Assembly (NCBI GenBank): GCA_963768055.1
Contig: CAVYGN010000002.1
Location: 1,632,001 to 1,696,000, forward strand
Direction of reading: 5' to 3'
Length of the DNA: 64,000 nt
DNA from: an uncultured Spirochaetota bacterium
GTDB lineage: Bacteria > Spirochaetota > Brevinematia > Brevinematales > JAOACQ01
Position numbers and translations under genes: made by a program. Positions 5,996 to 30,269 of the stretch are shown here, piece after piece (position 1 is the first letter of the stretch; each line of letters starts with the position of its first letter). A model generated the notes under the pieces. The model had not been told where the DNA came from and did no database searches. It saw only the letters and a program-made list of their open reading frames with translations.

Positions 5996-6010
5996 AATAT
6001 TTTCCTCCTC

Positions 6011-9140: not shown

Positions 9141-11483
9141 TTAAAATTCAATCCTAAAACCTCCAAGAGGCATAATAGAAAAATCTTGTAATTCAGCCTG
9201 AGTTAGTTGCCCATTATTTATGGTGTAATAATATGATATGACATTGTTATAATTTAAAGCATTTAAAACTTCAACATAAAAATACATTTGAGCATATGGA
9301 CCAAAAAATCCTTTTAATAAACCACCTCCTAATGGGATTGTCAATTTTAAATCGAGCCTACAATACCACGGAGTATAAGTACTGTCATAAGCTCCGTAAT
9401 AAATTTCATACTGTGTAGAATTTGTGGCAGGAGTATAAGGTAATCCACTCATAGCTGTTAATTGGACTGTAAATTTCCATTCGTTTAGAAAATCGAAAAA
9501 TAAGGATTGGTCAGGGTTTTTATAATAAGTCATTTCAACAAGGATTGAGATTGTATGTGACCTCAAGTAATCCGGTACAAACCACTGGTCCAGTTGTTGA
9601 GAATAGGGTATATTAGGGTTATCAGGTGAACGATTCGTTATTTCCTCAAGGCCGTATACATAAGTATAAGAAATCCACCCAGAAAGCCAATCACCCTTCT
9701 TTGGCTTTTTTTGAAGGTAAATATCACCCCCGTAAACATTTCTTAGCCCATCATTATTATAATTTAATAAAGAATCTGTTTCATCAAGATCGTAATAATA
9801 CTTGTAGAAGCCTTCAATCCTTAACATATAATCATTATCCGAATAATCCACACCGGTAATAGCATGATAAACCTTCTCGCTTTGAAGATTTGGGTTGCCA
9901 ATATTACTGATCAAATAATTAAACTGGGGAAAATCATGATAAAAGCCTCCTCTTAAATACAAATCAAGTTCTTTTGTGCATTCCAGCTTAATCCCTCCCT
10001 GAGGGTCAAAGGCCGATTCTTTATTCAGGCTGAAATACTCCTCCCTGCCTCCGAGTTCTAGAATAATTGATGGAAAAATTTCCCAGTTATCCATTAGGTA
10101 AACTCCATAATAAGAGGATTGTGATGGGCCATATGAGTAATTAAAATTCTGGTAATTGGATAGGAACCAACCTTGTTGGTTATTGTAAAAATAGTTGTTA
10201 TACTGGTTGGTTTCACAATAAAATCCAGGGTTATCATAAATAATAATTCCGCCAATCTGGATTTTGTGACCCTCGATAGAATTCAAATAATAATCAGAAC
10301 TAAGCTGATACCAGGTATTGTTAAAATTAACGTTTCCAAATAAATACGGTTCTTGACTATAAGTATTGCTTCCGTTCTCAGAAGAATCACCAGCAACAAT
10401 ATCAAAAAAGTCCCCCGAATCGAAACGATGGCTATATTTCAAGCTCCCAATAAAGTTAAGTATCTGATATTGATAGCTTCCTTTAAATCCAGAAAGTACT
10501 TGAGGGTTATCATTGCCGTTCCCAAGGTCCCATTTTTCTCCTTCTAGTGAGAAATAAGCAACAATAGAAAGATTGTCGTAATGTGTAATATCCCAGCAGA
10601 ATTTTGATATACCATCCCATAGATAAGGCCATTCTTGGACCAAAGACCTCTGATTTGTCGGGAGGAAAAGTGGATAATACAGATCATAATAGGTTCTGCG
10701 CATATCAAAAGAGATAGTTAGATTTGATGTTATAGGGCCCTCCAAAAGCACTTCGGATTCTATCGGAGAAATATCGATGAAACCTTTCCATCTTTCTTTA
10801 CTCCCATTAATAGTATCAACAACTATTACACCGGAAAGACCCTGTCCAAACATGGAAGGGTAAGCAGCCGTGTAAAGATTTATGCTGTCAACAAAACTTG
10901 GATTGAACATGGATATTGTGTATATACCGCCACTCCACCTCGTTGGGTTCATGATATAAATCCCATCCATGTAAGCAATCCATTCAGTACTGTTACCACC
11001 TTGAATAAACATACTGCTGTCCATTGCACTACCCCCCGATGAAACACCCGGCATAAGCTGAAGGGTTTTAAAAGAATCATTTATAATACCCTGGGAATTG
11101 GCTTCAATTTCCTCTTTATTTACAGTATTTTCAGTATCTACCCTTCCACTATTTCTTTTTGATTCGATGTTAATCTCTCCTAAAGAATATACTGATGGTT
11201 TAAGGCATATTTCTATATTTAAATCCATGCCATTTATTTCTATAGTATTGGAGTATTTTTCATACCCGGCAAGCATTGCATAAATAGTGTATTTCCCAGT
11301 AGGTATATTTTTGAATATACAGATACCTTTTTCGTCAGTCAAGAGATTTGCATTGTTTTCAAGGATAGAAAGACTGGCGTCTTCAAGAGGGATCCTTCCG
11401 TTGTTAACTTGTACAGTCAGTTCCGCTGAAAAAGAGAGAACATAAATAAAGACTATTAATATTGTGGTCTTCAATCTTTGCAT
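9141..11483 (-). CDS. TonB-dependent receptor with N-terminal carboxypeptidase-regulatory-like domain
   Basis: Signal peptide, LTDEKG..F.NIPTGKY domain, plug LQLMPGV...IQGG...DGI, aromatic beta strands, C-terminal Phe (GFRIEF). Confidence 0.88.
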   Translation of the reverse strand: MQRLKTTILIVFIYVLSFSAELTVQVNNGRIPLEDASLSILENNANLLTDEKGICIFKNIPTGKYTIYAMLAGYEKYSNTIEINGMDLNIEICLKPSVYSLGEINIESKRNSGRVDTENTVNKEEIEANSQGIINDSFKTLQLMPGVSSGGSAMDSSMFIQGGNSTEWIAYMDGIYIMNPTRWSGGIYTISMFNPSFVDSINLYTAAYPSMFGQGLSGVIVVDTINGSKERWKGFIDISPIESEVLLEGPITSNLTISFDMRRTYYDLYYPLFLPTNQRSLVQEWPYLWDGISKFCWDITHYDNLSIVAYFSLEGEKWDLGNGNDNPQVLSGFKGSYQYQILNFIGSLKYSHRFDSGDFFDIVAGDSSENGSNTYSQEPYLFGNVNFNNTWYQLSSDYYLNSIEGHKIQIGGIIIYDNPGFYCETNQYNNYFYNNQQGWFLSNYQNFNYSYGPSQSSYYGVYLMDNWEIFPSIILELGGREEYFSLNKESAFDPQGGIKLECTKELDLYLRGGFYHDFPQFNYLISNIGNPNLQSEKVYHAITGVDYSDNDYMLRIEGFYKYYYDLDETDSLLNYNNDGLRNVYGGDIYLQKKPKKGDWLSGWISYTYVYGLEEITNRSPDNPNIPYSQQLDQWFVPDYLRSHTISILVEMTYYKNPDQSLFFDFLNEWKFTVQLTAMSGLPYTPATNSTQYEIYYGAYDSTYTPWYCRLDLKLTIPLGGGLLKGFFGPYAQMYFYVEVLNALNYNNVISYYYTINNGQLTQAELQDFSIMPLGGFRIEF

Positions 11484-11608
11484 GTTGAAACTCCGAAGTG
11501 AACAATATATATTTCTATTCAGATAAAGAAGTTATTATTGACAATTAAAGGATAATTTCAAGGTTTACATCTCCGATATTGATAAATTGACAGGACAAGC
11601 GAACCAAG

Positions 11609-12220
11609 TCATAAATCAAATGTTTTTTTTGGCTTCAATTCGTATCCAAGTAAATAATCTGTTGTAACATTAAATAATTCGGCGAGTTTATAAATAATAT
11701 CGGAGGGTGGAGTTTTATCACCTACCTCATAGGATGTTATTGTAGTTCTGTTCAAATTAAGACGTTTTGCAACATCGTCTTGACTAAGATTGTAAAGTTT
11801 TCTTAAATATCTGATTCTGCTACCTGTTGAGATTTTTTTATTTTGACAAAATTCTACGCTTTTTATAGCCGATTCAATTGTGATAATTATATTATCAATG
11901 TTACCACCTTTTTCACAGTAACTTTGTATATCTAATGTATCTAGGGTTTTTAAACCAGGAGCTTCATTACCGTAACCTGTAAGTAATAAAATATAGATAT
12001 CTTTATTGAACTTTCTTATTTCGTTTACTACCCATATGCCATCATGTTCGTCTATACGGTGATCGAGAATTAATATATCATAAAATTCATTTTTAATTTT
12101 CTCTATACCTTCCAGCGAACTCATAACACCATCAATATAGTATTTATCAGATAAAAAAGCTTTTATAGTATTTATAATAGCCGGGTCATCATCAATTACA
12201 AGTATGCGTATACCGTTCAT
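11609..12220 (-). CDS. Response regulator, REC plus XRE-family HTH
   Basis: ILVIDDD...ILILD...LLTGY...K receiver; RIRYLRK..LSQDDVA...TITSYEVG..LAELFNVTTDYLLG XRE domain. Confidence 0.9.
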   Translation of the reverse strand: MNGIRILVIDDDPAIINTIKAFLSDKYYIDGVMSSLEGIEKIKNEFYDILILDHRIDEHDGIWVVNEIRKFNKDIYILLLTGYGNEAPGLKTLDTLDIQSYCEKGGNIDNIIITIESAIKSVEFCQNKKISTGSRIRYLRKLYNLSQDDVAKRLNLNRTTITSYEVGDKTPPSDIIYKLAELFNVTTDYLLGYELKPKKTFDL

Positions 12221-13446
12221 ATGCTTGCCACTCCTTTTGGTATTTTTATATAAAAACTTGTATGGTTATCATATGAATCATACGAAATTACCCCATTAAA
12301 CCGCCCGCGTATAATAGTTTGTGCTATATAAAGACCAATTCCAGTGCCTTTATTTCCTTTCGAGGTGCACATATTCACAAATAATTTTTTCCTAATATCT
12401 TCTGGTATTGGATTCCCTTTATTAGTAATTGCAATTATCAATTCATTTTTATTTGCTGTGACAGTCAAATCTATTATTTTGTCATTAGAAGCTTCCATTC
12501 CGTTCGTCAGAATTGTGTTGCAAACTTGAACTAGAGAATCGATATCGCCATTTATTATATAGTTTTTGCATTCAATATTTGTTTTTAAAATAATTTCATG
12601 AACCTTCAGTTCATAGTCCATAAGTAGAAGTATACGCTCTATCAAATCATTTATATTAAAACTGTTAATCTCCTTTTCTTTTACCTCTACGGTTATTGCT
12701 TGACCTTTGACCGCATTTATCACATTAGTCATATAAATGTTGTTGTTATTTATGAGTACTTTCCAATATTCCATCTGTCTCATGAGTAAATCCATAACCT
12801 TAGGGTCAAATGAATTCTCTTTATACAATTGATTAATTTTAGAAATACACTCGTTAATTACCCGTATTCCAGCACTTGAAGTCATTAGAGGAGTTTTTAG
12901 ATTATGAGCCACCCCACCAATAATCTGACTTAAAAATATGAGACGTTCGTTTTCGATTATCTGCTTCTGCCTTTCCTCAATTGCTATTATATCCTGCATA
13001 AGAATATCTTGAGATTCTACAACACGCGAGAATTTCTTATCACTGCTCTGATTGCCATTTATTATTTCTTCCTCATTCAGCCATTTTAAGGCTTTATCAA
13101 CAGAATCAAAAATTTTAATGTCATATCTTTTGGCTACAGCAAATATATTTTGGGCAATGATACGTTGTTCAGGACTATTTACCACTGTAGCACTGCGGTA
13201 TATAATTTTTGCGTTTGGATTTTGCAATGATAGTGCGATTTTTATAGTTACATCCCGACCAAAATCCCATCCAAAATCCTGTACATCAGTTAAAACTTTA
13301 ACTTTACCATTTTGAGCACCAACTCGGCCTATTAGCTCATATAATTCTCTGTAGGCATCGTTCAGTTGGCCGAGTGACATGGTTGTTCGATATTTGAAAT
13401 ATATTATCCCATCATCCCTTAGATGGCAAAGTTTTAACTTTCCCAT
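12217..13446 (-). CDS. Soluble sensor histidine kinase with SpoIIAA/STAS-like N-terminal domain
   Basis: H box VAHNLKTPL, N box, GTGIGL G2 box; no TM segment; N-domain ends IFDSVDKALKWL. Confidence 0.85.
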   Translation of the reverse strand: MGKLKLCHLRDDGIIYFKYRTTMSLGQLNDAYRELYELIGRVGAQNGKVKVLTDVQDFGWDFGRDVTIKIALSLQNPNAKIIYRSATVVNSPEQRIIAQNIFAVAKRYDIKIFDSVDKALKWLNEEEIINGNQSSDKKFSRVVESQDILMQDIIAIEERQKQIIENERLIFLSQIIGGVAHNLKTPLMTSSAGIRVINECISKINQLYKENSFDPKVMDLLMRQMEYWKVLINNNNIYMTNVINAVKGQAITVEVKEKEINSFNINDLIERILLLMDYELKVHEIILKTNIECKNYIINGDIDSLVQVCNTILTNGMEASNDKIIDLTVTANKNELIIAITNKGNPIPEDIRKKLFVNMCTSKGNKGTGIGLYIAQTIIRGRFNGVISYDSYDNHTSFYIKIPKGVASI

Positions 13447-13967
13447 TATAACTTTCCTTTTTTAACAAAACTTTCAGGGATTTTTGTTTTCAATAACTCG
13501 TATAGATCGGGGGCTTCTTTTTCTATTCTGACTGGTCGTTTAACAGAATTAAGCCATACATGTGAACTTATGGCGGTGACGACAAGTTCTGAACTTTTTG
13601 CTTTTTCTAAATCTTCGGGTTTTAGAGTATTTGCTCCTTGAATTATATCAAAATTAACTCGTCTAACCTCATACTCAAAAGAGAATCGAAGGCTCTGCAT
13701 GTCTTTTATTTGTGTAAATATAACTATGTTATCATCAAAAAAAGCAGGCTTTTTATACTGGATGGAAAGATCGGTCACGATTATGAATATTCCACGTTTT
13801 TCCATCTCTGCATACGAGAACCCGTACTGTTTAATTATACTTGATCTAGCCAGTTCCAACCATGGCAAATAACTACCGTGATAAACAATGTTCTGTGGGT
13901 CGCATTCGGGATAGCGGACATTTAAACAATAAGTAAACATTTTCACAACCTCACGATTTTTAAACAC
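13446..13967 (-). CDS. Hot-dog fold acyl-CoA/ACP thioesterase (YbgC/4HBT family)
   Basis: VRYPECDPQNIVYHGSYLPWLELAR, YKKPAFFDD. Confidence 0.9.
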   Translation of the reverse strand: MFKNREVVKMFTYCLNVRYPECDPQNIVYHGSYLPWLELARSSIIKQYGFSYAEMEKRGIFIIVTDLSIQYKKPAFFDDNIVIFTQIKDMQSLRFSFEYEVRRVNFDIIQGANTLKPEDLEKAKSSELVVTAISSHVWLNSVKRPVRIEKEAPDLYELLKTKIPESFVKKGKL

Positions 13968-14534: not shown

Positions 14535-15233
14535 ATGAAAAATAATCGTATTATTATTGGAATCATTGATAGTGGTGTCGACAGAAGGTTTATTATTGAA
14601 AATGGTGCTAAAATTAAAAAAGCGTCCGCATTTAATATAATACAAGAAAGCCGACTTGTAGAGTGTATTGAATATAGTAAAAAAGATATAAAAAAATGGC
14701 TAGCTGGAAAAATCGATCATATATCGGATGAACATGGCCATGGGACTTCTGTTCTTTCTATAATTTGGGGAATTTTACCCAATGCTGAATTCGTGGTTTC
14801 AAAGGTTCTTGACCATGAAAAAAAAGGATATTCGATATGCCTTGTAGAAGCGCTTCGTTGGATGATAGAAAAAACTGATGTCCTTATAATAAATATAAGC
14901 ATTACGACAAATGATACAAATATTAAGGATGATATGTTAAAACTTGTCAAAGAAGCAAAAAAGAAAGGTATAGTTATATATTCAGCGAAAGATAATGAAT
15001 ATAGTATACCTGCTTCTGTTGATGGTGTTGTTTCAGTAACTGATTTTTTAACAATAAATAAAGTCGGGCAATATTCTCTACTAAAATCGGACGTTGTAAT
15101 TGAAAAAAAGGAAGAATTAATTTGGTGGGAAGGCGAATGGATTCAAGATCCTATTAAACCAAGTTGGGCTTGTGCAGTAGCTGTTTCTAAAAAGTTTGAA
15201 ACTGGACATAATTTTAAAAAGAGATTTGTATGA
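14535..15233 (+). CDS. Minimal cytoplasmic S8 (subtilisin-like) peptidase, candidate leader peptidase
   Basis: IIDSG (Asp), DEHGHGT (His), IINIS, PSWACA (Ser, deviant from GTSxA); no signal peptide. Confidence 0.78.
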   Translation: MKNNRIIIGIIDSGVDRRFIIENGAKIKKASAFNIIQESRLVECIEYSKKDIKKWLAGKIDHISDEHGHGTSVLSIIWGILPNAEFVVSKVLDHEKKGYSICLVEALRWMIEKTDVLIINISITTNDTNIKDDMLKLVKEAKKKGIVIYSAKDNEYSIPASVDGVVSVTDFLTINKVGQYSLLKSDVVIEKKEELIWWEGEWIQDPIKPSWACAVAVSKKFETGHNFKKRFV

Positions 15234-17134
15234 AAAATAAAAATTTAAATTTACCATCTACATTCGTTTTAAAAAATTATACTTCTAAATATTATTTTGA
15301 TATTAATGCATTATTTTGGAACAGTTTATTCTCAGAAAAATATTTAACTAAAATTTTTCAAGAAATCAAACTTAGAAACAAAATAACAGATTTTGAGGAA
15401 ATTTATTTTGATTATCTTATTGTTAATATTTCAGCTATAAAAAGTATGATGTCTGATTGTTATGTCTATAAATATCTTGAAAAAAATGTCTATTTATGTT
15501 TTAAAGTATTCTATTTGATAGTAAACATATTTAACCTAATTAGTTCAGATCATAGAATTTCCTTGTCCTATGGAATATCTTACTTAAAAGATATCAGTAA
15601 TATTTCTTTAAGTATAAATAATATTTTTATAAATCAATTTTTTGATGATATACTGAATAACAGCTTTTTTGAAGATAATATTCAATATAATATAAATATT
15701 CATTGGGAAAATGAATTATATAGTTTAATTCTTTTATCTATTAAATTACGTGAAAAATTTAAAAATGTTAGAGTTATAGTGGATTTCAGTCAAGTAAATG
15801 AACAGGTAGATTTTACTCAATGGATTTCTAATAATAATATCAGACAATATATAGATAACTTTAATAATATATATCATGAAGATAATCATAAAATTATTAA
15901 TGCTAATTATCATATTGGTGACGTGTTTAAAACAAAAAATATAGGGACTAGATTATTCAATACAAAGTGTTATTGGAATAAATGTTCTTTTTGTACAATA
16001 AATTCAAGGCACAAATCTGATCATACTTTTAATTCATTAACAAAAGAAGCAAAAGAGATTGTTGATAGCTTTATTAAAAGTATTTTAAATTATAATGAAT
16101 TAATTTATATAACTTTTTCTGATGAAGCTATTGAAAGTTCAATATTATTATATTTTGCGGAGCAAATTATAAACCAAAACATTAATATAAAATGGATTGC
16201 AAGGACAAGATTTTCTAATATTTTTACTTATGAAAACTGTAAAACATTATCTCAATCTGGATTGAAAATGATTGGTTTGGGTCTAGAGTCTGTTAATCCG
16301 AGAATATTGAGTCTTATGAATAAAAGAGAAAAATTCTATGATACTCAAGAATTGAATCGTATTATTGGTAATTTCGACCAAAATAATGTAAGTGTACATA
16401 CATACTTTATTATTGGTTTCCCATCTGAAACGAAAAAAGAAACCAAGCAAACACTAAATTTCATTGATTATAATCTCAAAAAAAGAAAGTACTTTACATA
16501 TTCAGCTAATAGGTTTTATCTAATGAAAGGGTCGAAAATTTATAGTAATCCGAAGGAATTTGGAATTGAAATAATCGATAAAGGTGAAGATGTTAAAATA
16601 GGTAATATCAATTATATTGATCAAAATAAAGGTCATAAATACAGCAGAGAAGAAATATTATTTTTGTCTAAGAAAGCTTATTCGAAAATGTTTTTTAAAA
16701 AAGTTAATAACAATTATTTAATTATATTAGGATGTAATTTCTGGGATTTTATTGATAGAACAGCATTATTTTATATTCATAAATATTACAATGAATTGAA
16801 TCCTTATTTTAGAAGAAATAAAAAAAGGATAAAACTTCATGATGAAGATCTTGATTCATTTTATAAAATTATCAGCATTCCTATTTATAAATTAAATCCT
16901 TTGATATATTTTGATATTATTAATGATAGATATATTAGGATTAAAGAAATATTAAAAAATCTTTTTTATAAGTTTATTAATTCTTATAACACAAAATTAA
17001 CACTCAGACAGAATATTTATGAAATATTACAAAAATTAGATTATAAATGTTCTAATAAGCAAATTAATTTATTTAATAAAATGATAATTCAATTAATTGA
17101 TGATGCATACTTGTATAGGATTGAAAAATTGTAA
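15230..17134 (+). CDS. Radical SAM enzyme of class B (B12-dependent)-like architecture, probable C-terminal RRE
   Basis: CYWNKCSFC, FSDEA, GLESVNPRILSLMNK, FIIGFPSET. The long N-terminal region has no clear cobalamin motif by eye; the C-terminus has a beta-then-three-helix pattern. Confidence 0.8.
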   Translation: MKNKNLNLPSTFVLKNYTSKYYFDINALFWNSLFSEKYLTKIFQEIKLRNKITDFEEIYFDYLIVNISAIKSMMSDCYVYKYLEKNVYLCFKVFYLIVNIFNLISSDHRISLSYGISYLKDISNISLSINNIFINQFFDDILNNSFFEDNIQYNINIHWENELYSLILLSIKLREKFKNVRVIVDFSQVNEQVDFTQWISNNNIRQYIDNFNNIYHEDNHKIINANYHIGDVFKTKNIGTRLFNTKCYWNKCSFCTINSRHKSDHTFNSLTKEAKEIVDSFIKSILNYNELIYITFSDEAIESSILLYFAEQIINQNINIKWIARTRFSNIFTYENCKTLSQSGLKMIGLGLESVNPRILSLMNKREKFYDTQELNRIIGNFDQNNVSVHTYFIIGFPSETKKETKQTLNFIDYNLKKRKYFTYSANRFYLMKGSKIYSNPKEFGIEIIDKGEDVKIGNINYIDQNKGHKYSREEILFLSKKAYSKMFFKKVNNNYLIILGCNFWDFIDRTALFYIHKYYNELNPYFRRNKKRIKLHDEDLDSFYKIISIPIYKLNPLIYFDIINDRYIRIKEILKNLFYKFINSYNTKLTLRQNIYEILQKLDYKCSNKQINLFNKMIIQLIDDAYLYRIEKL

Positions 17135-17238
17135 CTTATATAATAATAAATAATAAAATTAAACGTAAAAACATATTAATTGACATTATGATTGAAAATT
17201 TTACAAACCTTATAAAGTTAAGATTTTTATTAATGAAA

Positions 17239-17560
17239 TTCCCGGTTGGAGATAAAATAGGTAAAAAGGAGTATTTATGAAGAAAAACCCTGTCAGGTTT
17301 TATGACATTCCTGAGTCATTAAAGGAAATTTATGCTCTTGGTTCTGGTAGCGGTAATAGTGGTTCTGTAGCAGGAGATTGTTGTTCTGTTACTAATACAA
17401 CTTCTACTTGTGGTTGTGTTGGCTGGATGGCAAGTGCTAATACAACTTGCCAGACTAATACTTTTTCCTCTGCATCATTCTTTAAGAAACCACCCGCAAA
17501 AAGAATAATTAAGTAATATCTTAAAACAATAATTTCAAGTTAATTATCTCCAGCTGGGAA
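17239..17560 (+). other. 17-bp long-range RNA helix enclosing the precursor gene
   Basis: UUCCCGGUUGGAGAUAA (17239-17255) pairs fully with UUAUCUCCAGCUGGGAA (17544-17560) using two G-U wobbles. Confidence 0.7.
17277..17516 (+). CDS. RiPP precursor peptide (Cys/Ser/Thr/Asn-rich)
   Basis: 79 aa, AAGGAG RBS, charged leader, Gly/Ser linker, 5 Cys in core; lies among three radical SAM genes. Confidence 0.85.
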   Translation: MKKNPVRFYDIPESLKEIYALGSGSGNSGSVAGDCCSVTNTTSTCGCVGWMASANTTCQTNTFSSASFFKKPPAKRIIK

Positions 17561-17585
17561 AATTATATTAAAGAGAGAAAAGAAT

Positions 17586-18695: not shown

Positions 18696-18714
18696 AATTA
18701 ATTGGGGAAATAAT

Positions 18715-19836: not shown

Positions 19837-22179
<2,343 letters not shown>

Positions 22180-22257
22180 TAAAATACAATGATATCTTAA
22201 TGGTAAAATTATTTAATTTGTTGATTTGGAATAAATATTTAAGGAATTGGAGGCTAT

Positions 22258-22761
22258 ATGTTGGATTTGGCTTATTTAAATATTGGAACTTTGAAACAAT
22301 TGTATATGCAGTACATCAAAAAAAATGAAAATAAGTATTATTTGATTGACTTCTTTAGTAACTACGATATTCAAATCGATCCAAATGATTGGAATCGAAT
22401 TCAATATGTTAGTAAAGATTTTAACGGTAATATCATTGCTTATTTTGAAGCAAGAATAAATCGAGGATTTAATATTATTAATGATTTAGAAATATTAAAA
22501 TTTATTGAATATCCCAATATAATATGGATTCATGATTTTATCAGATTTCTCAAAGTGTTATTGCTTGAAAAAAACTTCAGAAAAGTGGTTTTTTATGCTA
22601 TCATAGACAACCCATCTTTTACAAAATGTGAACTATATTTATTGAAGTATAAATTGGTTAAAGAAGTTGGTGTAATGAAAAACCATTGTATTCTTAATGA
22701 TGGAAAAATTTATGATATGAAAATTTTTGAGATTGAAAGAGATAATTTAGGAAAATGGTAG
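22258..22761 (+). CDS. GNAT-fold (RimJ/RimL-like) acyltransferase, copy 1
   Basis: NFRKVVFYAIIDNP...EVGVMKNH.ILNDGKIYDMKIFEI; clear paralogue of 26310..26843. Confidence 0.72.
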   Translation: MLDLAYLNIGTLKQLYMQYIKKNENKYYLIDFFSNYDIQIDPNDWNRIQYVSKDFNGNIIAYFEARINRGFNIINDLEILKFIEYPNIIWIHDFIRFLKVLLLEKNFRKVVFYAIIDNPSFTKCELYLLKYKLVKEVGVMKNHCILNDGKIYDMKIFEIERDNLGKW

Positions 22762-22767
22762 AAAATA

Positions 22768-23541
22768 ATGATTTTTAATATTTTATTAAAACTATCAATA
22801 AGAAATCTTTTTCGTCATAAAACAAAGAATCTGCTCGTTGTCCTTATGATCATGACGGGCTGTTCCCTGTTTTTTATAGCTTCCTCGCTTGAATGGAATA
22901 TCAGGGATAACTGGAGGCATTACCTTTCAGATACGGTCTTGGGAGATTACTATATAACTTCGATAACGGGGATCGGCGACGATTACCGTTTTTTTAACAC
23001 TGTCCCGCCGCTGAAATTTATCAATAAGGAAATTATTGATTTTCTCGACAGGAATAAAATTCAATATTCATGCAGGATAAGGACCGGGGCAAAGTATTAT
23101 GATGAGAAGCTCGGGTTTCGGGATTTCAACAAATTCCTCGGTATAGATTTTTTAAAGGAGGAAAAGATCCTCTCCAATATATTGATTTATGACGGCACAT
23201 TCGAACCTGCCTCAGATAACGGCATGGATTTTTTCTGGAATCCTTCCTGGAATTATCAGCCGCCGGTCGGGACAAACCTTGTGGTATTAATTCTTGCACT
23301 TGCCGGATATCTGATTGGTGTATTCATCGGTGCTTTGTCAGGCAGTATAATTGAAAATATGCGGATATACCTGGTGTTCCAGGATTATATGAACGGACCT
23401 GTAATGTTCATTCATTCCTTTTGGGATTTTCTCTACATACTGCTGTTCATATTATTACTGACAGCGGTTTGGAGCATTCCGGTAATTAACCGGATCGTCT
23501 CGAAAGCCCCCGCGAGGGTATTCAGGGAACAATCGTATTAA
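22768..23541 (+). CDS. FtsX/LolE-like ABC permease, short and probably internally deleted
   Basis: LSIRNLFRHKTKNLL N-terminus and C-terminal TM helices, but only 257 aa. Confidence 0.6.
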   Translation: MIFNILLKLSIRNLFRHKTKNLLVVLMIMTGCSLFFIASSLEWNIRDNWRHYLSDTVLGDYYITSITGIGDDYRFFNTVPPLKFINKEIIDFLDRNKIQYSCRIRTGAKYYDEKLGFRDFNKFLGIDFLKEEKILSNILIYDGTFEPASDNGMDFFWNPSWNYQPPVGTNLVVLILALAGYLIGVFIGALSGSIIENMRIYLVFQDYMNGPVMFIHSFWDFLYILLFILLLTAVWSIPVINRIVSKAPARVFREQSY

Positions 23542-23552
23542 TTGGAGTATTT

Positions 23553-24326
23553 ATGAAGAATTGGATTTTACTTATTACAGCGGCAGTATTAACGGCGGTC
23601 TATTCATTATCTTATTGTATCGATCCGGGCGATGTTATTTCTAAATCCGATAAGCGATTTATACCGGATATATTCACTTATAACATGACCCTCCGGACTA
23701 CTTCGGCAAACGGCAAGATTGATGTAGTGGATTATAAGGGGAAAAAGAAACACGAAAATAATATAATGATCACAATAAATCCGGTCAGTGCAAGGGGGCA
23801 GGTCAACCTGAAAAACAGGAACGTGATATGGAGTTACTTTCCTACCTCGGATACAAGTATAAAGTATAGCTACCAGGCAATAATCCTGGGGACGTCGGTA
23901 AGTTACGGCGACATCCTGGCGCTTGAGCTTTCCCGCGATTATGACGTCCGGTCGATGATCGAAACCTCGAGCCTCGAAACCAATGGCCTCGAGGATCCGG
24001 CCTCGACGAATAAGTTTTATCTGCTGACGCTTGGGCCTAAAAAAGATGTCGACGGATATGCGAAAATATTTTTGTGGATAAATACGGCGAACTTTCTGCC
24101 TGTTAAGAGGCAGTACTACGCTTTATCCGGGCTCCTGGTGAAATCCTGCGAGATACAGGGTATTTCCTTCGATGATAAAGGCGTTGTAAGCGAGTGTAAA
24201 GAACTGTTTTATGAACCCCTGAAACAAAAGCAAACCCTGGTAACCTTTTCCAATGTTATTATTATGAGTGATATTCGCGATAAGACATTCAATCCGAAAG
24301 CTATGAAATTTTTCAGCGGAGAGTGA
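23553..24326 (+). CDS. Outer membrane lipoprotein-sorting (LolA-like) protein
   Basis: Signal peptide; ILGTSVSYGDI...YAKIFLWI...YYALSGLLVK...FNP pattern; next to permease and ATPase. Confidence 0.75.
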   Translation: MKNWILLITAAVLTAVYSLSYCIDPGDVISKSDKRFIPDIFTYNMTLRTTSANGKIDVVDYKGKKKHENNIMITINPVSARGQVNLKNRNVIWSYFPTSDTSIKYSYQAIILGTSVSYGDILALELSRDYDVRSMIETSSLETNGLEDPASTNKFYLLTLGPKKDVDGYAKIFLWINTANFLPVKRQYYALSGLLVKSCEIQGISFDDKGVVSECKELFYEPLKQKQTLVTFSNVIIMSDIRDKTFNPKAMKFFSGE

Positions 24327-25579
24327 ATTTGATTAAAATTTCAATCTTTATCCTTCTGCTTTTTCTTCCCATGGAGCTATTTTCATTGGATATAAGCTCA
24401 GTCATAAACACCGGTTTCGATGTTCAATCGGTTAACAGCAATTCGCTGCTTTACCCGCTGAATTTGCTTCAGAGCGGGGGTTACACGAACGAGGGCTTCG
24501 ATTACTATGTCAATGCCGATGTAATAATGAAAAGCGCGATGGGCGAGATCGGGAAGGGTTATCTGGATGTCAGATTCAGTTATTATCCGAAAACATTTCT
24601 TACAAATACCCCCTGGCAGTATTTTAATATTGTTGAGGGTTATGCTGACCTGGCGACCGAGGACTTTTTGCTGCGCATAGGGAAGCATTTCATGCACTGG
24701 GGCGATGGGGTCGCTTTTAATCCCGTCGATATAGTGGATTTGAGAAAAGATCCCCTGTCATATACCGGATATGACCAGGGGAAGCCGGGGGCTGATATAA
24801 CGGTTCCCATAGGTGATTTCAGTTCTTTTTCAGCTTTAAGCGTTGTCGACAGCACATTAACTACGAACATTGACAATCTGCCTGCCATATTGCAATATTT
24901 CTTATCGATAGATATGTTCGACGGGTTTATATTCGCCGATTTTCAGAAGAATTACAAGCCCGAATATGGCGGCAACATCGATTATGTCATGTCTGTAAAA
25001 AATAATATAAATTTAAAACTATATTCCCAATTAACCTACAGAGAGGACAGCTACCGTGAGTTCGCCGCCGAAACGAATGGAGTTCCGTACCTTGAAAATA
25101 TGACCAACAATTACTACGCTGCCTGGGCTGTAGGCGGTAATCTTACCTTTTCTTTTACAGAGACGCCGTTGATCGACGGTATAATAATTTCCGCCGAATA
25201 TTATTACGATGACGAGAACTGGAGCAAAAACGCTTATCAGAATTTCCTGTCGTATATAGATGCGCAGACGAATAATAATAATGTTCCCGCATATATGAAC
25301 GCTATGCTGCAGGAGCAATACCTCAGGAATTCTAAAAGCTATTTTTTTTCAGCGCTTACTTTCCAGGGGCTGTTTGATAAAGATTTCAGCCTGACCGGTT
25401 CTGTGGTCCTTAACATTGACGATCTGAGTTTTGTAATTTATCCCTCGATGTCGTATCAGATCAACCTGGATACCAGGATATCGATAGGAGCCCAGTTTTT
25501 TTGCGGCGGCCAGGACAGCGAATTCGGCAGTATGTCGCAGCTTTTTTCCGTAAACGCCAATTTAACGGTTTCATTTTGA
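24323..25579 (+). CDS. Putative outer-membrane beta-barrel protein
   Basis: Signal peptide, LRIGKHFMHWGDGVAFNPVD, C-terminal Phe. Confidence 0.65.
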   Translation: MNLIKISIFILLLFLPMELFSLDISSVINTGFDVQSVNSNSLLYPLNLLQSGGYTNEGFDYYVNADVIMKSAMGEIGKGYLDVRFSYYPKTFLTNTPWQYFNIVEGYADLATEDFLLRIGKHFMHWGDGVAFNPVDIVDLRKDPLSYTGYDQGKPGADITVPIGDFSSFSALSVVDSTLTTNIDNLPAILQYFLSIDMFDGFIFADFQKNYKPEYGGNIDYVMSVKNNINLKLYSQLTYREDSYREFAAETNGVPYLENMTNNYYAAWAVGGNLTFSFTETPLIDGIIISAEYYYDDENWSKNAYQNFLSYIDAQTNNNNVPAYMNAMLQEQYLRNSKSYFFSALTFQGLFDKDFSLTGSVVLNIDDLSFVIYPSMSYQINLDTRISIGAQFFCGGQDSEFGSMSQLFSVNANLTVSF

Positions 25580-25595
25580 AACAAAGGAGCATCTC

Positions 25596-26266
25596 ATGAT
25601 TAAAATCAGTGGTGTAGAAAAGACCTATTATCTTGGAAAATCTACGATCGAGGCGTTGAAGGGAATAAATGCAGCTTTTAATAAAGGCGAATTTACATCC
25701 GTGGTCGGGCCGTCGGGCAGCGGAAAATCCACGCTGCTTAACATTATAGGCTGCCTTGACAGGCCTGATCGGGGAGAGGTAGTAATAAGCGGTGAAAATA
25801 TTACCTCTTTAAAAAGCAACAGGCTTGCCGATATCAGGGCCGAAAAGATAGGCTTTATATTTCAGTCCTTTAACCTTATACCTGTCCTAATGTATATGAA
25901 AATATCGAGCTGCCTTTGAATAATATTAATAAATACAAATCGAAAAAGGAAAAGAGGGACAGGATCATAGAACTCATAGAGCATGTAGAGCTTGGCTGTT
26001 ATTTAAAGCACAGGCCTGAGGAGCTTTCAGGAAGCCAGAGGCAGCGCGTGGCTATCGCCAGGGCCCTGGTTACGAATCCTGAAATAGTCCTTGCCGACGA
26101 ACCGACGGCAAACCTCGATTCTGAAACAGGCAGGATGATAATAGAACTCATGAGAAAGATCAACAGGGACTACGGCACTACATTTATATTTTCAACCCAT
26201 GACTTGAATATAATGAAATATGCCGAAAGAGTGTTAAATCTAAAGGATGGAAGAATTTTTAACTGA
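25596..26266 (+). pseudogene. LolD/MacB-type ABC ATPase with 1-nt frameshift
   Basis: GPSGSGKS in ORF 1; LSGSQRQR and LADEPT in ORF 2. CTAATGTA near 25889 lacks one A of the expected LNVYENIELPL. Confidence 0.85.
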
Positions 26267-26309
26267 TATTTAATATGGTTTCATAACATAATTAAAAAGA
26301 GGTATTTCT

Positions 26310-26843
26310 ATGCTAGAACTAGCATACTTAAATCAAGAAAAGTTACAAGATATTTATTCAAAAAGGATTACTTCTAAATTTAATAAGTATTATTTTTTTG
26401 AAAGTTATTATGATTATATTTTACCAATTGACCAAAATGATGAAAAAAAAATACAATACGTTGGAAAAGATAATGAAGGCAATATAATCGGCTATGCAGG
26501 TGCATGGATTAATCGTACTCATAATATTATTGAAAGGATGGAAATAATAAATTTTACAGAAAAGCCAAAATTAGAAGGATCAAGGAATTTATTTGATTTT
26601 CTAGAAATTATTCTTATCAAAAAGAATTTTAGAAAAATTGTTTTTTATGTGGCTGTAGAAAATCCAGCTATTAAATTGTATGAGAAATTCATGAATTTTG
26701 GAGAAGGAATAGGGAAAAAAGTTGGTATTTTAAAAGAACATTATACTCTAAATGATGGAAAGAATCATGATGTTGCTATATTTGAAATTTACAGGGAAGG
26801 TTTTACAGAATGGTTTAGAAAAAAAATAAAAAAAGACTTTTAA
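26310..26843 (+). CDS. GNAT-fold (RimJ/RimL-like) acyltransferase, copy 2
   Basis: VAVENPAIKLYEKF...VGILKEHYTLNDGKNHDVAIFEI. Confidence 0.75.
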   Translation: MLELAYLNQEKLQDIYSKRITSKFNKYYFFESYYDYILPIDQNDEKKIQYVGKDNEGNIIGYAGAWINRTHNIIERMEIINFTEKPKLEGSRNLFDFLEIILIKKNFRKIVFYVAVENPAIKLYEKFMNFGEGIGKKVGILKEHYTLNDGKNHDVAIFEIYREGFTEWFRKKIKKDF

Positions 26844-26911
26844 TTAAAAAGATTGAAAAATAGAGAATAAAATATTTTGGATTTTTTTAGATAAAAAAGA
26901 GGAGGATTTTT

Positions 26912-27172
26912 ATGATAAAAGAAGATTTCAAAAACATTAATGAATTAATATTTGAACTAAAGAAAATGATTTCAAGTCAAATCAAATTACAAGGAGAAGA
27001 TTTCGATGAAAATAAGGATTTTGTCTCCGACTATGGAGTAGATTCTCTTGATTTGCTTTTATTGATTTCGGAAATAGAAGATATTATGAAAGTGAGAATC
27101 GAAACAGAAGATGCTGAAAAGATGAGGACTTTTGCAGATGTAAGAAAATATGTTGAGAGTAAATATTTATAA
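26912..27172 (+). CDS. Acyl carrier protein
   Basis: Acidic 86 aa with DYGVDSLDLL phosphopantetheine Ser motif. Confidence 0.92.
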   Translation: MIKEDFKNINELIFELKKMISSQIKLQGEDFDENKDFVSDYGVDSLDLLLLISEIEDIMKVRIETEDAEKMRTFADVRKYVESKYL

Positions 27173-27236
27173 ATATATCGAATAGTATATAAAGAATGTA
27201 TTATCAAAATATAAAAAATAAAGAGTAAATAATATT

Positions 27237-28448
27237 ATGAGAGTTTATGTTGGTAGTCTGGGTATAATTGTTTCAAATGGGAAAAATATTCTTGATTTCA
27301 GCAATAATATATTTGCCGGGAAATCTGGGATTAAAAAGTTGTCCAATGATGATTACTCTGATATTCCTGTTAGGATTGGAGGTGAAATTATAAATGATTG
27401 GCTTAAAGATTCCGATCTTTCTGAAGAAAGATCTTGGACATTATTGGAAATTGCTGCAGATGAGGCTATAAAGATACAAAAAAATAAAATCTTTAAGTTA
27501 GAATCAGACAGGATAGGTGTTTTTGTTGGGACATCATATGCTGGATCAAATACTATACTAGAGAATTATAAGCATTATTTAAATAAAGAAATATACAAAG
27601 TTTCTCCGTTGACAATGATTAAAGCTATGCGATATTATGCTGCCAGTAATTTAGCCAGAAAATATAAAATCGAAGGTCCCTTACTGGCTTATGATACAGC
27701 TTGTTCTTCTTCACTTCATGCTTTAGGCAATGCTTATAAAATGATTCATTCAAATTTGTTGGATTTAGCTATAGTTGGAGGGGTAGAAACACCACTAACA
27801 CCAACAAGTATCATATGCTGGGACCGTTTACGGATTTTGGCTAATAATGAAGATAATCCGGATAAAGCCTCCTCTCCTTTTGATAAAAAAAGTCCTGGTA
27901 TTGTGTTGGGTGAAGGAGCGGGTGTTATAATCCTTCTAAGTGAGGATGTTATGAATAAAATGGATATTCCACCTTTGGCTGAAATTGCAGGATATGGCTA
28001 TTCTAATGATCCAACGCACATTACTAAATCTAATTTTAAATATATGATAAAATCTATGCAAAAAGCATTATCAGATTATCCCGGACTCAAAGATACAATT
28101 AATTATATTCAAGCTCATGGTACGGGAACTAAGATAAATGATATGGAAGAAGCAAGAGCGATAAATACATTATTTGGTAATCAATCTAATAATATTAAGG
28201 TTAATTCAATAAAATCAATGGTTGGCCATTTGCTTGGCGGCAGCGGAATAATTTCGGCAATAACTACTATTATACAGATTAAGGAAAAGAAATTACACCC
28301 TAATCTAAATCTTGAAGATCCATATAATGATTACCAAATTAACTATGTTGGGGCAAATAAGGAAAGTTGGAATATATGTGTGGGCATTGTAAATGCATTT
28401 GCATTTGGTGGAAGCTTTGCTTCGATATTGATTAAGTATGTGAACTGA
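27237..28448 (+). CDS. Beta-ketoacyl-ACP synthase (FabF/FabB type)
   Basis: Intact triad TACSSS, AHGTGT, KSMVGHLLG; LGEGAG; NAFAFGG. Confidence 0.93.
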   Translation: MRVYVGSLGIIVSNGKNILDFSNNIFAGKSGIKKLSNDDYSDIPVRIGGEIINDWLKDSDLSEERSWTLLEIAADEAIKIQKNKIFKLESDRIGVFVGTSYAGSNTILENYKHYLNKEIYKVSPLTMIKAMRYYAASNLARKYKIEGPLLAYDTACSSSLHALGNAYKMIHSNLLDLAIVGGVETPLTPTSIICWDRLRILANNEDNPDKASSPFDKKSPGIVLGEGAGVIILLSEDVMNKMDIPPLAEIAGYGYSNDPTHITKSNFKYMIKSMQKALSDYPGLKDTINYIQAHGTGTKINDMEEARAINTLFGNQSNNIKVNSIKSMVGHLLGGSGIISAITTIIQIKEKKLHPNLNLEDPYNDYQINYVGANKESWNICVGIVNAFAFGGSFASILIKYVN

Positions 28449-28472
28449 ACCAAAATGAAATTAGAATAATAT

Positions 28473-30269
28473 ATGAAATTAATAGCGATAAATAAAAAAG
28501 ATTGGCCCCTGATAAAAAGAGCATTTAACTATGTTAAACCGAATAAATTCAAATTTGCATTTTCTTTTTTCCTTCTACTTGTAGGAATTAGTTTTAATTT
28601 AATTCTCCCTTACTTATGGGCAAAAATTATTGCCTGTATTTTTAATAAAGATTATAATACTTTAATATTTATTGTAATCTCTATTACTATTGTACTAATA
28701 ATACAATCTATATATGGGCTTTTACAAAATTATGTTTCAACTTCATTATATCAAGAAATAGTTTACAATGTCAAAAAAGACATGTACAAAAAAATTTTAG
28801 ATTTACCTATGAAAGCATTTGATCAACTACGTGCAGGTGATTTTATTTCAAGGTTACAAGGTGATGCAAACACAATTTCTCAGGTTATTACAGGACAATT
28901 CTTAAACTCGGTTGTTGACGTATTAAAAATAATAACATTTGGAATAGCTGTTTTCTGCATTAACCTGCCCATGGCGATAATGCTTTTAATAACTTTTCCT
29001 TTGTCATTAATTGTATTTATTAAATTTGGCAAGCTTATGCGAGAGAAAAACAAGGAAATGGCAGAAATGAATGATAATTATTTTAGCAATGTACATCAGT
29101 CAATAACTGGTATAAGGGAAATAAAGGGATTGGGAATTAAAAATCAAAATTACTTGACTTTTATATCATTATTAAAATTGATGAAAGAAAAAGTTATTAA
29201 CATAAACATCTTTGGAGGAATATCCCAGCTTATTACACAGACTTTCAACTACATTTCAGAAATTGGGGTGATAATTGTTGGAGCATATCAAATATACAAA
29301 GGTTTTTTAAAAATAGAGTTCTTCATAACTTTTACATCATATTCTATTCAATTTTCTGAATCAATAATGAATATTAGTAATTTAAATAATAATATTCAAC
29401 AAGCAATGACTTCTTTAGAAAGAATATTTGGTATTATGGATAATTTGAATTATCAGGAATATAATTATGGAAATTTGAATTTAAAAAACATTGAAGGAAA
29501 TATAAAATTTGATGGTATTACATTTGGGTATAATGAAAACTCGAATATTTTGAATAATGTTTCTTTTGAGATCCAGAAAAATAAAAAAATAGCTATTATA
29601 GGAAAAAGTGGTAGTGGAAAATCAACAATATTTAACCTTATACAAAATTTTTATAAACCTCAATTGGGAAAAATTCTAATTGATGACATAGAACTCAATA
29701 AATTAAGTGAAGATTGCTTAAGGGAACATATTTCAATAGTCAGGCAAGAACCTTTCCTTTTTAATTTATCAATTAAAGATAATTTGTTACTTGTTAATCC
29801 AACTGCTAAAGATGATGATGTAATTAACGCTTGTAAATTAGCTTTTATTCATGAATATATTTCAAATTTACCTGAAGGCTATAATACTTTAGTACAAGAT
29901 GGTGGAGCAAATTTCTCGGTAGGGCAAAAGCAAAGGATAGCTATTGCTAGAGTTTTATTGAAAAATACAAAAATAATATTATTTGATGAAGCAACTTCTT
30001 CATTAGATAATGAATCTCAATATTATATTAAAAAGGCCATTGACAATCTTTCATTAAATCATACGGTAATAATTATTGCCCATAGATTACTAACTTTTAT
30101 TGAAAGTGATGAAATAATTTTACTTGATAAAGGAATTATTGCCGGTATTGGCAATCATTCAACTTTGATTAAAAATAATGAAATCTATAATTTGTTATAT
30201 CATATGGAATTGGATACTTATAATAAAAGTCAAAATCTTTCTTTGTTAAAAGATGTCAACACTTTTTAA
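28473..30269 (+). CDS. ABC exporter, fused TMD-NBD (no C39 domain)
   Basis: Six-TM N-half; GKSGSGKS, FSVGQKQR, LFDEATS, IAHRL. Confidence 0.93.
   Translation: MKLIAINKKDWPLIKRAFNYVKPNKFKFAFSFFLLLVGISFNLILPYLWAKIIACIFNKDYNTLIFIVISITIVLIIQSIYGLLQNYVSTSLYQEIVYNVKKDMYKKILDLPMKAFDQLRAGDFISRLQGDANTISQVITGQFLNSVVDVLKIITFGIAVFCINLPMAIMLLITFPLSLIVFIKFGKLMREKNKEMAEMNDNYFSNVHQSITGIREIKGLGIKNQNYLTFISLLKLMKEKVININIFGGISQLITQTFNYISEIGVIIVGAYQIYKGFLKIEFFITFTSYSIQFSESIMNISNLNNNIQQAMTSLERIFGIMDNLNYQEYNYGNLNLKNIEGNIKFDGITFGYNENSNILNNVSFEIQKNKKIAIIGKSGSGKSTIFNLIQNFYKPQLGKILIDDIELNKLSEDCLREHISIVRQEPFLFNLSIKDNLLLVNPTAKDDDVINACKLAFIHEYISNLPEGYNTLVQDGGANFSVGQKQRIAIARVLLKNTKIILFDEATSSLDNESQYYIKKAIDNLSLNHTVIIIAHRLLTFIESDEIILLDKGIIAGIGNHSTLIKNNEIYNLLYHMELDTYNKSQNLSLLKDVNTF

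Follow-up and report, generated by a model that had tools for sequence, protein, structure and literature searches.

Introduction

Peptides that are ribosomally synthesized and then modified after translation (RiPPs) and that carry a fatty acyl chain, or lipo-RiPPs, have been described as lipolanthines, goadvionins and selidamides (PMC8784127, PMC13647313), with lipoavitides (10.1101/2023.10.25.564083) and lipolassos (10.1101/2024.12.31.630886) as further members. Goadvionin and lipolanthine clusters possess an acyl carrier, a condensing enzyme and a GNAT-family acyltransferase of their own, and the enzyme GdvG is reported to accept only acyl units bound to an acyl carrier protein (ACP) (10.1101/2023.10.25.564083; PMC8784127; PMC11685415). 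These actinomycete products combine avionin or lanthionine chemistry with chains of the polyketide synthase type. Fatty acylation of a ribosomal peptide by a GNAT is also reported for lipoavitides, at the N-terminus, and for selidamides, at a lysine or ornithine side chain. Lipoavitide assembly is described as using FabH and acyl-CoA with no ACP and as yielding AviMeCys, and selidamides contain LanM-type thioethers (PMC13647313). In the accessible parts of these sources, cross-linking by radical S-adenosylmethionine (radical SAM) enzymes appears in none of the five groups, and neither "radical SAM" nor "rSAM" is mentioned anywhere in PMC8784127 or PMC13647313.

Thioether maturases of the PapB, CteB and QhpD types are grouped here with the ranthipeptides, in which a Cys-bearing precursor gene lies directly upstream of the maturase gene. 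PapB is reported to join Cys to Asp or Glu (PMC9413430) and CteB/Tte1186 to make Cys-Thr links (PMC10352776). In the maturation of quinohemoprotein amine dehydrogenase (QHNDH), the proteins QhpD, QhpE and QhpF are described as forming thioethers in the cytoplasm, removing the leader with a subtilisin-like protease and then delivering the product to an ABC exporter (PMC7876137). The main text of a compendium of radical SAM RiPPs (PMC10288494) contains no mention of acyl, GNAT, acetyltransferase, lipid or "ketosynth".

The present analysis concerns a gene cluster on a 64,000-nt stretch (the window) of contig CAVYGN010000002.1, assembly GCA_963768055.1, from an uncultured Spirochaetota bacterium (Brevinematales, JAOACQ01). 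On the plus strand, positions 14535..30269 hold 16 co-oriented open reading frames (ORFs) with intergenic gaps of -4 to 142 nt, in which radical SAM peptide maturases stand beside an ACP, a ketosynthase (KS), two GNATs and export proteins. The cluster is rare, and its product is probably a ribosomal peptide with a lipid tag, of an undescribed kind; that the whole run is one biosynthetic operon for a lipidated, radical SAM cross-linked peptide is a proposition that we consider evenly balanced. The observations behind it are the gene content, the intact catalytic motifs, a gene order shared with a second genome and purifying selection over a long time.

Gene Content of the Cluster

Pfam families were assigned to 26 window proteins and NCBIfam families to 25; the check for lanthipeptide and YcaO enzymes spanned 54 proteins. 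Table 1 lists the genes. The original prediction had named an S8 protease, a radical SAM enzyme, a Cys-rich ORF, two SPASM enzymes, two GNATs, an ACP, a KS and an ABC exporter for the plus-strand run, and each was recovered at its place from the ORFs, Pfam and NCBIfam. Its description of the KS as intact also holds, since the motifs DTACSSS, AHGTGT and GHLLG provide a complete Cys-His-His set. The divergent thioesterase, two-component system and TonB receptor that it reported are present on the minus strand by Pfam and NCBIfam, as possible members of the cluster, and the LanB, LanC, LanM, LanKC and YcaO families that it had declared missing are indeed found in none of the 54 window proteins scanned with Pfam. 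Six genes in the middle of the run had been overlooked, encoding a 780-aa protein with a hydrolase fold and a Lol-like exporter set, as had the damage to that exporter in the window copy.

Table 1. Features of the cluster and its surroundings, with protein identity (tblastn) to the related locus L001 on JAGVOW010000088.1.
Feature	Position	Strand	Evidence or remark	Identity to L001
S8 subtilisin-like protease, 232 aa	14535..15233	+	PF00082 38.6 bits (cut-off 21.8), E 9.9e-10	
Radical SAM enzyme, 634 aa	15230..17134	+	PF04055 41.2 bits, residues 250-412	
Candidate precursor peptide, 79 aa	17277..17516	+	AAGGAG 7 nt before ATG	
Radical SAM/SPASM maturase 1 (SPASM1), PapB-like	17586..18695	+	NCBIfam PapB 177.6 bits (cut-off 340)	42% over C-terminal 191 residues
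Radical SAM/SPASM maturase 2 (SPASM2), PapB-like	18715..19836	+	NCBIfam PapB 177.4 bits (cut-off 340)	37%
Exported multidomain hydrolase-fold protein, 780 aa	19837..22179	+	Weak CarboxypepD_reg and PDZ matches	30%
GNAT1, 167 aa	22258..22761	+	Paralogue of GNAT2	69%
FtsX-type permease remnant, 257 aa	22768..23541	+	N-terminus of permease A fused in frame to C-terminus of permease B	67-71% (FtsX permeases)
LolA-like periplasmic carrier	23553..24326	+	PF17131 78.1 bits (cut-off 30); N-terminal hydrophobic segment	68%
Secreted protein, 418 aa	24323..25579	+	N-terminal signal-like segment	about 65%
MacB/LolD-type ABC ATPase, split	25596..26266	+	ORFs 25596-25919 (107 aa) and 25916-26266 (116 aa)	85-86%
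GNAT2	26310..26843	+	PF00583 22.6 bits (cut-off 20.7)	76%
ACP	26912..27172	+	PF00550 40.2 bits; DSL serine present	62%
FabF-like elongating KS	27237..28448	+	PF00109, PF02801; Cys-His-His motifs	71%
ABC exporter (MsbA/HlyB-like), fused transmembrane and nucleotide-binding domains	28473..30269	+	PF00664, PF00005	74%
YbgC/FadM-type 4HBT thioesterase	13446..13967	-	TIGR00051 85.9 bits (cut-off 68.7)	
Histidine kinase	12217..13446	-	Pfam, NCBIfam	
Response regulator, REC-HTH_3	11609..12220	-	Pfam, NCBIfam	
TonB-dependent receptor	9141..11483	-	PF00593, Plug, CarbopepD_reg_2	
Mobile elements	5234-7561, 2-751, 30516-31442, 37732-38598, 42418-43446	-, -, +, -, -		

Conservation in a Second Genome

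A scan of genome contigs with a four-sequence GNAT profile returned 60 stretches that matched the pattern, one of which encoded a relative. This locus, L001, lies in a Brevinematales metagenome-assembled genome (MAG) and begins inside the SPASM1 gene. The original prediction had proposed recurrence of the gene order as a check, and in this sole other genome compared the order from SPASM1 to the ABC exporter is the same as in the window: SPASM1, SPASM2, the 780-aa protein, GNAT1, the exporter set, GNAT2, ACP, KS and ABC. By tblastn, 13 of the 26 window proteins match, colinearly from SPASM1 to the last ABC protein, and by blastn the similarity is 69% over 8 kb, continuous save for one jump. The 13 unmatched proteins are the S8 protease, the 634-aa radical SAM enzyme, the precursor, the divergent arm (which lies outside the span of L001) and mobile or flanking genes; since the upstream genes would fall past the end of L001, their missing matches are uninformative. 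Downstream of the ABC gene, the window has an integrase, and L001 has genes for Lyase_1, HydF, YjeF and U32 proteins, with a window match for none of the five L001 flank proteins. Because the right flanks differ, the ABC exporter marks the right boundary of a block that occupies two genomic contexts.

Further relatives were sought with a word-indexed search of 5.8 billion protein clusters, in which the counts of relatives are lower bounds. SPASM2 had at least 3 relatives at 34-42% identity, among 9 matches at E<=1e-3 (5,940 candidates), and GNAT2 at least 2. Among the relatives gathered in all searches, P0018 and P0011 are proteins of L001 itself; the independent ones are P0015, P0016, P0017, P0019 and P0020 of the 780-aa type, P0002 to P0004 of the SPASM2 type, and P0012, a GNAT2-type relative from a Bacteroidales MAG. 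Both paralogue pairs, SPASM1/2 and GNAT1/2, are orthologous one to one between the window and L001.

Codon positions give an indication of how old this arrangement is. Identity at third positions is 0.36-0.47 in all nine gene pairs, which is saturated. At first and second positions, it is 0.71-0.89 for GNAT1, the LolA-like protein, the 418-aa protein, GNAT2, ACP, KS and ABC, and 0.48-0.65 for SPASM2 and the 780-aa gene. Since third positions are equally saturated in both, the two halves diverged long ago and differ in constraint rather than in age. A later transfer of the lipid half than of the RiPP half was considered and is rejected on the same grounds. Protein identity that stays at 62-76% while synonymous sites are saturated argues that the adjacency is old and selected, and shows the predicted lipid half to be under long-term purifying selection. 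The linkage of peptide and lipid genes that the original prediction had drawn attention to is thus real and old. The difference in rate may mean that the fast half is in contact with a peptide that varies, and that the slow half deals with a lipid that stays the same.

Divergence at two speeds could also mean that two separate systems merely adjoin: a ranthipeptide-type operon consisting of the S8 protease, the radical SAM enzymes, the precursor and the 780-aa protein (which has TIKI-fold and PDZ domains), followed by an envelope-lipid cassette of GNAT, Lol-like set, GNAT, ACP, KS and MsbA-like ABC exporter that makes and exports an N-acyl amine or an amino-acid lipid instead of an acylated peptide. 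Protein identity to L001 is bimodal, at 30-42% for the RiPP half and 62-86% for the lipid and export half, and composition inside the run is mosaic. In favour of such a cassette, LolA-like and MsbA-like proteins handle lipids, the structural neighbours of GNAT2 acylate small polyamines, and N-acyl amino-acid synthases, FeeM among them, are also reported to pair a GNAT with an ACP (PMC11685415). Yet no gap or terminator stands between the halves, where 78 nt separate the 780-aa gene from GNAT1 and only 6 nt lie between GNAT1 and the FtsX gene; in the window scan, promoter-like sites numbered 145 against 117 expected and terminator-like sites 9 against 5.8 expected, and the halves were not separated. 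The order has been held past synonymous saturation in two genomic contexts, and the extreme rarity of both GNAT2-type and SPASM2-type proteins, within the reach of the word index, fits a shared niche. On this balance, two adjoining systems seem rather unlikely to us. The functional linkage of the halves is argued mainly from an adjacency that outlasted synonymous saturation, from the different contexts and from the lack of an internal gap, all in one comparison.

Candidate Precursor and Peptide-Modifying Enzymes

The 79-aa ORF, the candidate precursor, lies directly upstream of SPASM1, as in ranthipeptide loci, and ends 69 nt before it. All five of its Cys residues (35, 36, 45, 47 and 58) lie within residues 35-58, in a core rich in Thr, Ser and Asn that contains the sequence NTTC, one Asp and no Glu. 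The tail is Lys-rich (K70, K71, K75 and K79, in KKPPAKRIIK). No Pfam or NCBIfam family matches the peptide. NxxcB reportedly links Cys to Asn in NxxC motifs. It is a known maturase family (PMC11851443).

The alignments of SPASM1 and SPASM2 to the PapB model of NCBIfam run from one end to the other, with scores at about half of its equivalog cut-off. The families that follow are the QhpD, Nif11, CcpM and SCIFF maturases, QhpD being second best for SPASM1 (134.4 bits, cut-off 453). The best match of SPASM1 among PDB sequences is 5wgg (E 2.1e-24), which we take to be CteB. The radical SAM motif CX3CX2C reads CNLACKYC in SPASM1 and CNMSCKYC in SPASM2, and it is present in all five full-length members of a six-sequence alignment, the sixth (P0002) having no such N-terminal stretch. 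Pfam detects the SPASM domain in SPASM2 (23.4 bits, cut-off 21.5) and none in SPASM1 at E<=0.01. In their C-terminal halves, the six aligned sequences, SPASM1 included, share seven Cys columns without exception, which include the conserved SPASM cysteines. Compared with the described ranthipeptide systems, the cluster has two maturases plus a third radical SAM enzyme, and the N-terminal RiPP recognition element (RRE) region of CteB and SCIFF maturases is missing. Alignments to the SCIFF, CcpM and Nif11 models begin at model positions 81-103, and both proteins start at the radical SAM core; the RRE is judged absent because of this late start. A separate PqqD-like protein was not seen in the window.

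The S8 protease has QhpE as its top NCBIfam family (58.8 bits, cut-off 165). Its Asp (IIDSGVD) and His (HGHGTS) motifs are recognizable, the Ser motif (PSWA) is degenerate and outside the Pfam alignment, and no transmembrane segment or signal peptide is found in it. These features suggest a short cytoplasmic QhpE-like enzyme and make it a candidate leader peptidase. Together with the SPASM enzymes and the ABC exporter, it reproduces the three-step logic of QHNDH maturation. The resemblance to the qhp operon is nonetheless distant, in that the QhpE and QhpD scores are far under their cut-offs and no QhpA, QhpB or QhpG is found in the window.

The third radical SAM enzyme, of 634 aa, was labelled class-B-like in the original prediction. 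The top NCBIfam matches are indeed B12-type families, confined to the radical SAM core (PhpK 65.5 bits, cut-off 600), and the nearest Atlas clusters are annotated as "B12-binding domain-containing radical SAM protein" (score 0.97), with PF02310 in 23-40% of the members of these neighbours. The Pfam scan of the enzyme itself found no PF02310 (B12-binding) match and hence no cobalamin domain such as class B calls for. Because this match is absent and the family scores are far under cut-off, the label is kept as a lead: a layout resembling B12-type radical SAM enzymes, with methylation as a possible activity. The cluster motif is CX4CX2C (C247, C252 and C255) rather than the usual CX3CX2C. Residues 1-230 and the final 190 residues match no family, and the best E-value against PDB sequences is 0.56.

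ACP, Ketosynthase and GNATs

The ACP and KS are dedicated copies, and both score under the housekeeping cut-offs: the ACP reaches 52.8 bits with its best NCBIfam ACP model (AcpP cut-off 71) and the KS 308.3 bits with the FabF model TIGR03150 (cut-off 493.75). GNAT1 has no Pfam match even at E<=10, and the count of two GNATs holds because it is 43-44% identical to GNAT2. The AlphaFold (AF2) model of GNAT2 has a GNAT fold (pLDDT 75.9). Foldseek gives 341 matches at E<=0.001, headed by polyamine N-acetyltransferases of the SpeG kind (E 2.8e-10, TM about 0.7). At the level of a predicted model, these matches establish the fold and a place among amine-acylating enzymes, and they are silent on the acyl donor. 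An assignment of the GNATs as LuxI/FeeM-type acyl-ACP enzymes was considered and dropped, as the top matches listed are the SpeG-type acetyltransferases instead. The GNAT profile found nothing significant among PDB sequences (best E 0.076), and tblastn of GNAT2 gave no match in a plasmid collection.

The motif [QR]xxGx[GA] of the CoA-binding P-loop occurs in none of six GNAT family sequences (five distinct), and two of four aligned GNATs (GNAT1 and P0012) have no glycine at the beta4-alpha3 junction. A replaced P-loop is reported as typical of the carrier-protein-dependent GNATs SbzI and FeeM, and GdvG/AprG, FeeM and GNAT-like decarboxylases are reported to use acyl-carrier proteins (PMC11685415). 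The missing P-loop, along with the dedicated ACP and KS, favours acyl-ACP as the predicted acyl donor.

Alternatively, the product would be a RiPP that is acylated but not lipidated. The GNATs might do short-chain work, such as N-acetylation for tailoring or self-immunity, with the KS and ACP supplying only a small unit (for example a starter of the acetoacetyl type) or serving another product. The acetyltransferases at the top of the fold matches and the single KS without reductive enzymes would be in keeping with this, but the acetyl-CoA P-loop is found in 0 of 6 GNAT sequences, the dedicated ACP and the elongating-type KS with its Cys-His-His set are kept at 62-71% identity, and genes for a LolA-like protein and a Lol-type exporter are embedded between the two GNATs. 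We regard short-chain acylation as quite improbable.

The comparison with the known lipo-RiPPs is closest for the goadvionins and lipolanthines, since the cluster too contains an acyl carrier, a condensing enzyme and GNATs of its own. It differs from them in having radical SAM/SPASM cross-linkers, one KS, one ACP, two GNAT paralogues and a Lol-like set, with no LanKC, LanD, LanM, LanB or LanC family among the 54 proteins scanned; GdvG is likened here by description only. An ACP and a FabF-type KS stand where lipoavitides have FabH and acyl-CoA. Selidamides are reportedly formed with nitrile-hydratase-like leaders; the window has no LanM-type family, and the Lys-rich tail of the precursor could play the role of the acylated side chain. 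Taken together, these likenesses and differences suggest a cluster of the GNAT-acylated RiPP/fatty-acid-hybrid kind that lies outside every named family.

The Lol-like Export Set and Its Damage

Judged by family matches and by comparison with L001, the genes at 22768-26266 are a MacB/Lol-type export set. In L001 this set is intact: two FtsX permeases and a LolA_like protein (PF17131, 78.7 bits) are accompanied by a secreted protein (416 aa) and an ATPase (223 aa) whose best families are LolD (235.1 bits, cut-off 307.75) and DarD (228.7 bits). The L001 permeases have weak FtsX, ADOP and MacB matches only. The composition resembles LolCDE-LolA and MacB-type (DarBCD) systems; the differences are that scores remain under the LolC/D/E equivalog cut-offs, that the set is embedded between two GNATs, and that it includes an extra secreted protein, of 418 aa in the window. 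That protein ends in LTVSF, consists of aromatic residues to 16%, and is possibly an outer-membrane barrel; it belongs to no Pfam family, and a search of PDB sequences gave 0 matches at E<=10. The ABC exporter at the end of the run scores 375.9 bits with MsbA (cut-off 602).

The window copy of the Lol-like set has suffered two lesions. In the FtsX remnant, residues 1-180 correspond to residues 1-180 of L001 FtsX-A and residues 173-257 to residues 320-404 of FtsX-B, and the blastn alignment leaps at this point from L001 position 5255 to 6967, a 1.7-kb deletion. The ATPase is split by a 1-nt frameshift near 25889, and its frames rejoin when aligned with the intact L001 protein. With the Lol-like route inactivated, the window copy is possibly in decay, or else it may depend on the ABC exporter that is left.

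The stronger form of this idea, in which the cluster sits here on a mobile island as a remnant in decay and its ancestral product, whatever that was, is no longer made or exported by this genome, accounts for the fused permease, which retains 3 hydrophobic segments rather than 4, for the split ATPase and for the IS21 elements, integrases and other transposases that flank the cluster. The frameshift could be an assembly error, however, the other 13 ORFs are full length against L001 with catalytic motifs intact, and the second exporter (MsbA-like ABC) is undamaged. A remnant would, moreover, concern activity in this host and is compatible with a lipidated product. We think it somewhat unlikely.

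GC content at third codon positions (GC3) is 0.45-0.51 at 22768-26266, exactly the damaged segment, and 0.13-0.24 in all other cluster genes; the identity of this segment to L001 is no higher than elsewhere. Recombination with a relative of higher GC content may have patched this segment.

The Exported 780-aa Protein

The AF2 model of the 780-aa protein (pLDDT 88.1, pTM 0.85) consists of a transmembrane helix, two beta-sandwich domains, an alpha/beta domain, helical repeats and a PDZ domain. With Foldseek, the alpha/beta domain matches 3b55 and 2rad (probability 1.00, E 8e-6 to 5e-5, TMt 0.43-0.47 over 412-419 columns). The former is Bcr135, described as an erythromycin-esterase-family member of the TIKI superfamily, for which the catalytic 2His/2Glu set of RRSP is given as E3900, H3902, E3930 and H4030 (PMC6254334). 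In an exhaustive HMMER search, the protein has 104 relatives at E<=1e-3. Six of them are full length (29-35% identity), and most others are about 500 aa long, spanning residues 235-690. Across an alignment of 44 sequences, H261, R284, E289, E343, R366, G392 and H395 do not vary, and at least 90% of the sequences keep E259. The spacing of E259, H261, E289 and H395 equals that of the RRSP residues, which makes them candidate equivalents of the TIKI catalytic set.

The central domain thus shares its fold with the TIKI/erythromycin-esterase superfamily (Bcr135, RRSP, Tiki, TraB/PrgY and ChaN), and the architecture around it, with a membrane anchor, two beta-sandwiches, helical repeats and PDZ, is new to that superfamily. 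The catalytic part matches no Pfam family, the Atlas search gave no usable match, and tblastn against the plasmid collection gave none. For graspetide loci, Tiki/TraB peptidases are noted in the literature as the likely enzymes of leader removal or maturation (PMC8939145), and this conserved TIKI/PDZ protein is a candidate for a new type of RiPP-processing hydrolase.

A Proposed Pathway and the Case Against It

In the single-operon reading, the two PapB-like enzymes would cross-link the 79-aa precursor in the cytoplasm, probably through thioethers from Cys to the side chains of Thr or Asn, which are favoured over the Cys-Asp/Glu type of PapB because Glu is missing from the core and Asp occurs there once. 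Further modification of the peptide by the B12-like radical SAM enzyme is possible, and the QhpE-like protease would take off the leader. The dedicated ACP and elongating KS would lengthen an acyl chain borrowed from primary fatty-acid synthesis, and one or both P-loop-less GNATs would then move it from the ACP to the peptide, where the accepting amine would be that of the N-terminus left by leader removal or of a Lys in the KKPPAKRIIK tail. The lipopeptide would be carried through the envelope by the MsbA-like ABC exporter and a private Lol-like route consisting of the two FtsX permeases, the LolD-like ATPase, the LolA-like carrier and a probable outer-membrane protein. There, the exported TIKI/PDZ hydrolase would trim the product.

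Several observations weigh against this reading. The SPASM enzymes have no RRE, and a leader reader was not identified among the cluster genes. The precursor had no relative besides itself in the word-indexed search at E<=10 (1 of 1). Recurrence rests on one other genome, which is cut inside SPASM1, so that the precursor, the S8 protease and the B12-like radical SAM enzyme fall outside the comparison, and within it the identities are bimodal, as described above. The SpeG enzymes that are nearest to GNAT2 in fold are CoA-dependent, and no LuxI- or FeeM-like structure is among the matches listed. The cluster has no ketoreductase, dehydratase, enoyl reductase, malonyl transferase or phosphopantetheinyl transferase, and a KS and ACP alone are insufficient for making a fatty acid; the acyl chain must therefore derive largely from primary metabolism. 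The peptide is the predicted GNAT acceptor, and a long acyl group is likewise a prediction, both on indirect evidence. The Lol-like exporter is broken in the window copy by a deletion and a frameshift, and the jump in GC3 inside the operon also fits a mosaic of separable modules.

A more specific proposal is that the product is a lipoprotein-like envelope peptide made by a private pathway that bypasses Lgt, Lsp and Lnt, with radical SAM cross-linking in the cytoplasm and carrier-protein-dependent GNATs that attach a chain finished by its own KS and ACP. The MsbA-like ABC exporter would flip the molecule, a dedicated LolCDE-like transporter would extract it and pass it to the LolA-like carrier and the outer-membrane protein, and the TIKI/PDZ protein would process it in the periplasm. 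This we consider unlikely. If true, no radical SAM lipo-RiPP and no natural-product cluster with a Lol route of its own would have come before it. The original prediction did not recognise as described a thioether-crosslinked, possibly C-methylated peptide that is N-acylated after leader removal, and searches of open-access PMC and bioRxiv texts agree with this as far as they reach: no radical SAM lipo-RiPP, lipidated ranthipeptide or sactipeptide, ranthipeptide cluster with ACP, KS and GNAT, or RiPP with LolA-like export was found in that literature, and an earlier description elsewhere is possible. Its term "new class" is too strong; on present evidence, a variant within the lipo-RiPPs is the better description.

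Interest in ribosomal lipopeptides comes from the wish to replace non-ribosomal lipopeptide drugs by products that are encoded in genes and can be engineered. The scaffolds described in the accessible sources are of the lanthionine/avionin type, AviMeCys and lasso, to which a radical SAM thioether with an ACP-dependent GNAT would add a new pairing, and new acyltransferases of only about 170 aa would widen the toolbox. From the embedded Lol-like set, a testable model would follow for the transport of a lipidated peptide through a diderm envelope. The system is rare and occurs in poorly studied lineages, a Brevinematales MAG and, with a related GNAT, a Bacteroidales MAG.

Genomic Surroundings

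Rfam and tRNA scans of the window gave 0 matches each. Beyond the divergent arm and to the right of the cluster are an IS21 pair (IstB with Mu-transposase-C/rve), two tyrosine recombinases and transposases of the IS1595 and DDE_Tnp_1 types; the cluster lies on an island dense in such mobile elements. Defence-type genes at 47064-49544 (+), 35077-37701 (-) and 45826-46176 (-) encode a TOTE AEP primase-helicase fusion, an N6-methylase/Eco57I-type protein and a Gp49/HigB-like toxin-family protein. A 591-aa fusion of radical SAM/SPASM and a C-terminal HD phosphohydrolase domain (40572-42347, +; Pfam, NCBIfam) is positionally unrelated to the cluster. At 39356-39988 (+), a 210-aa fragment of the C45/choloylglycine-hydrolase family matches only the middle of the model and is probably a truncated gene beside insertion sequence (IS) elements.

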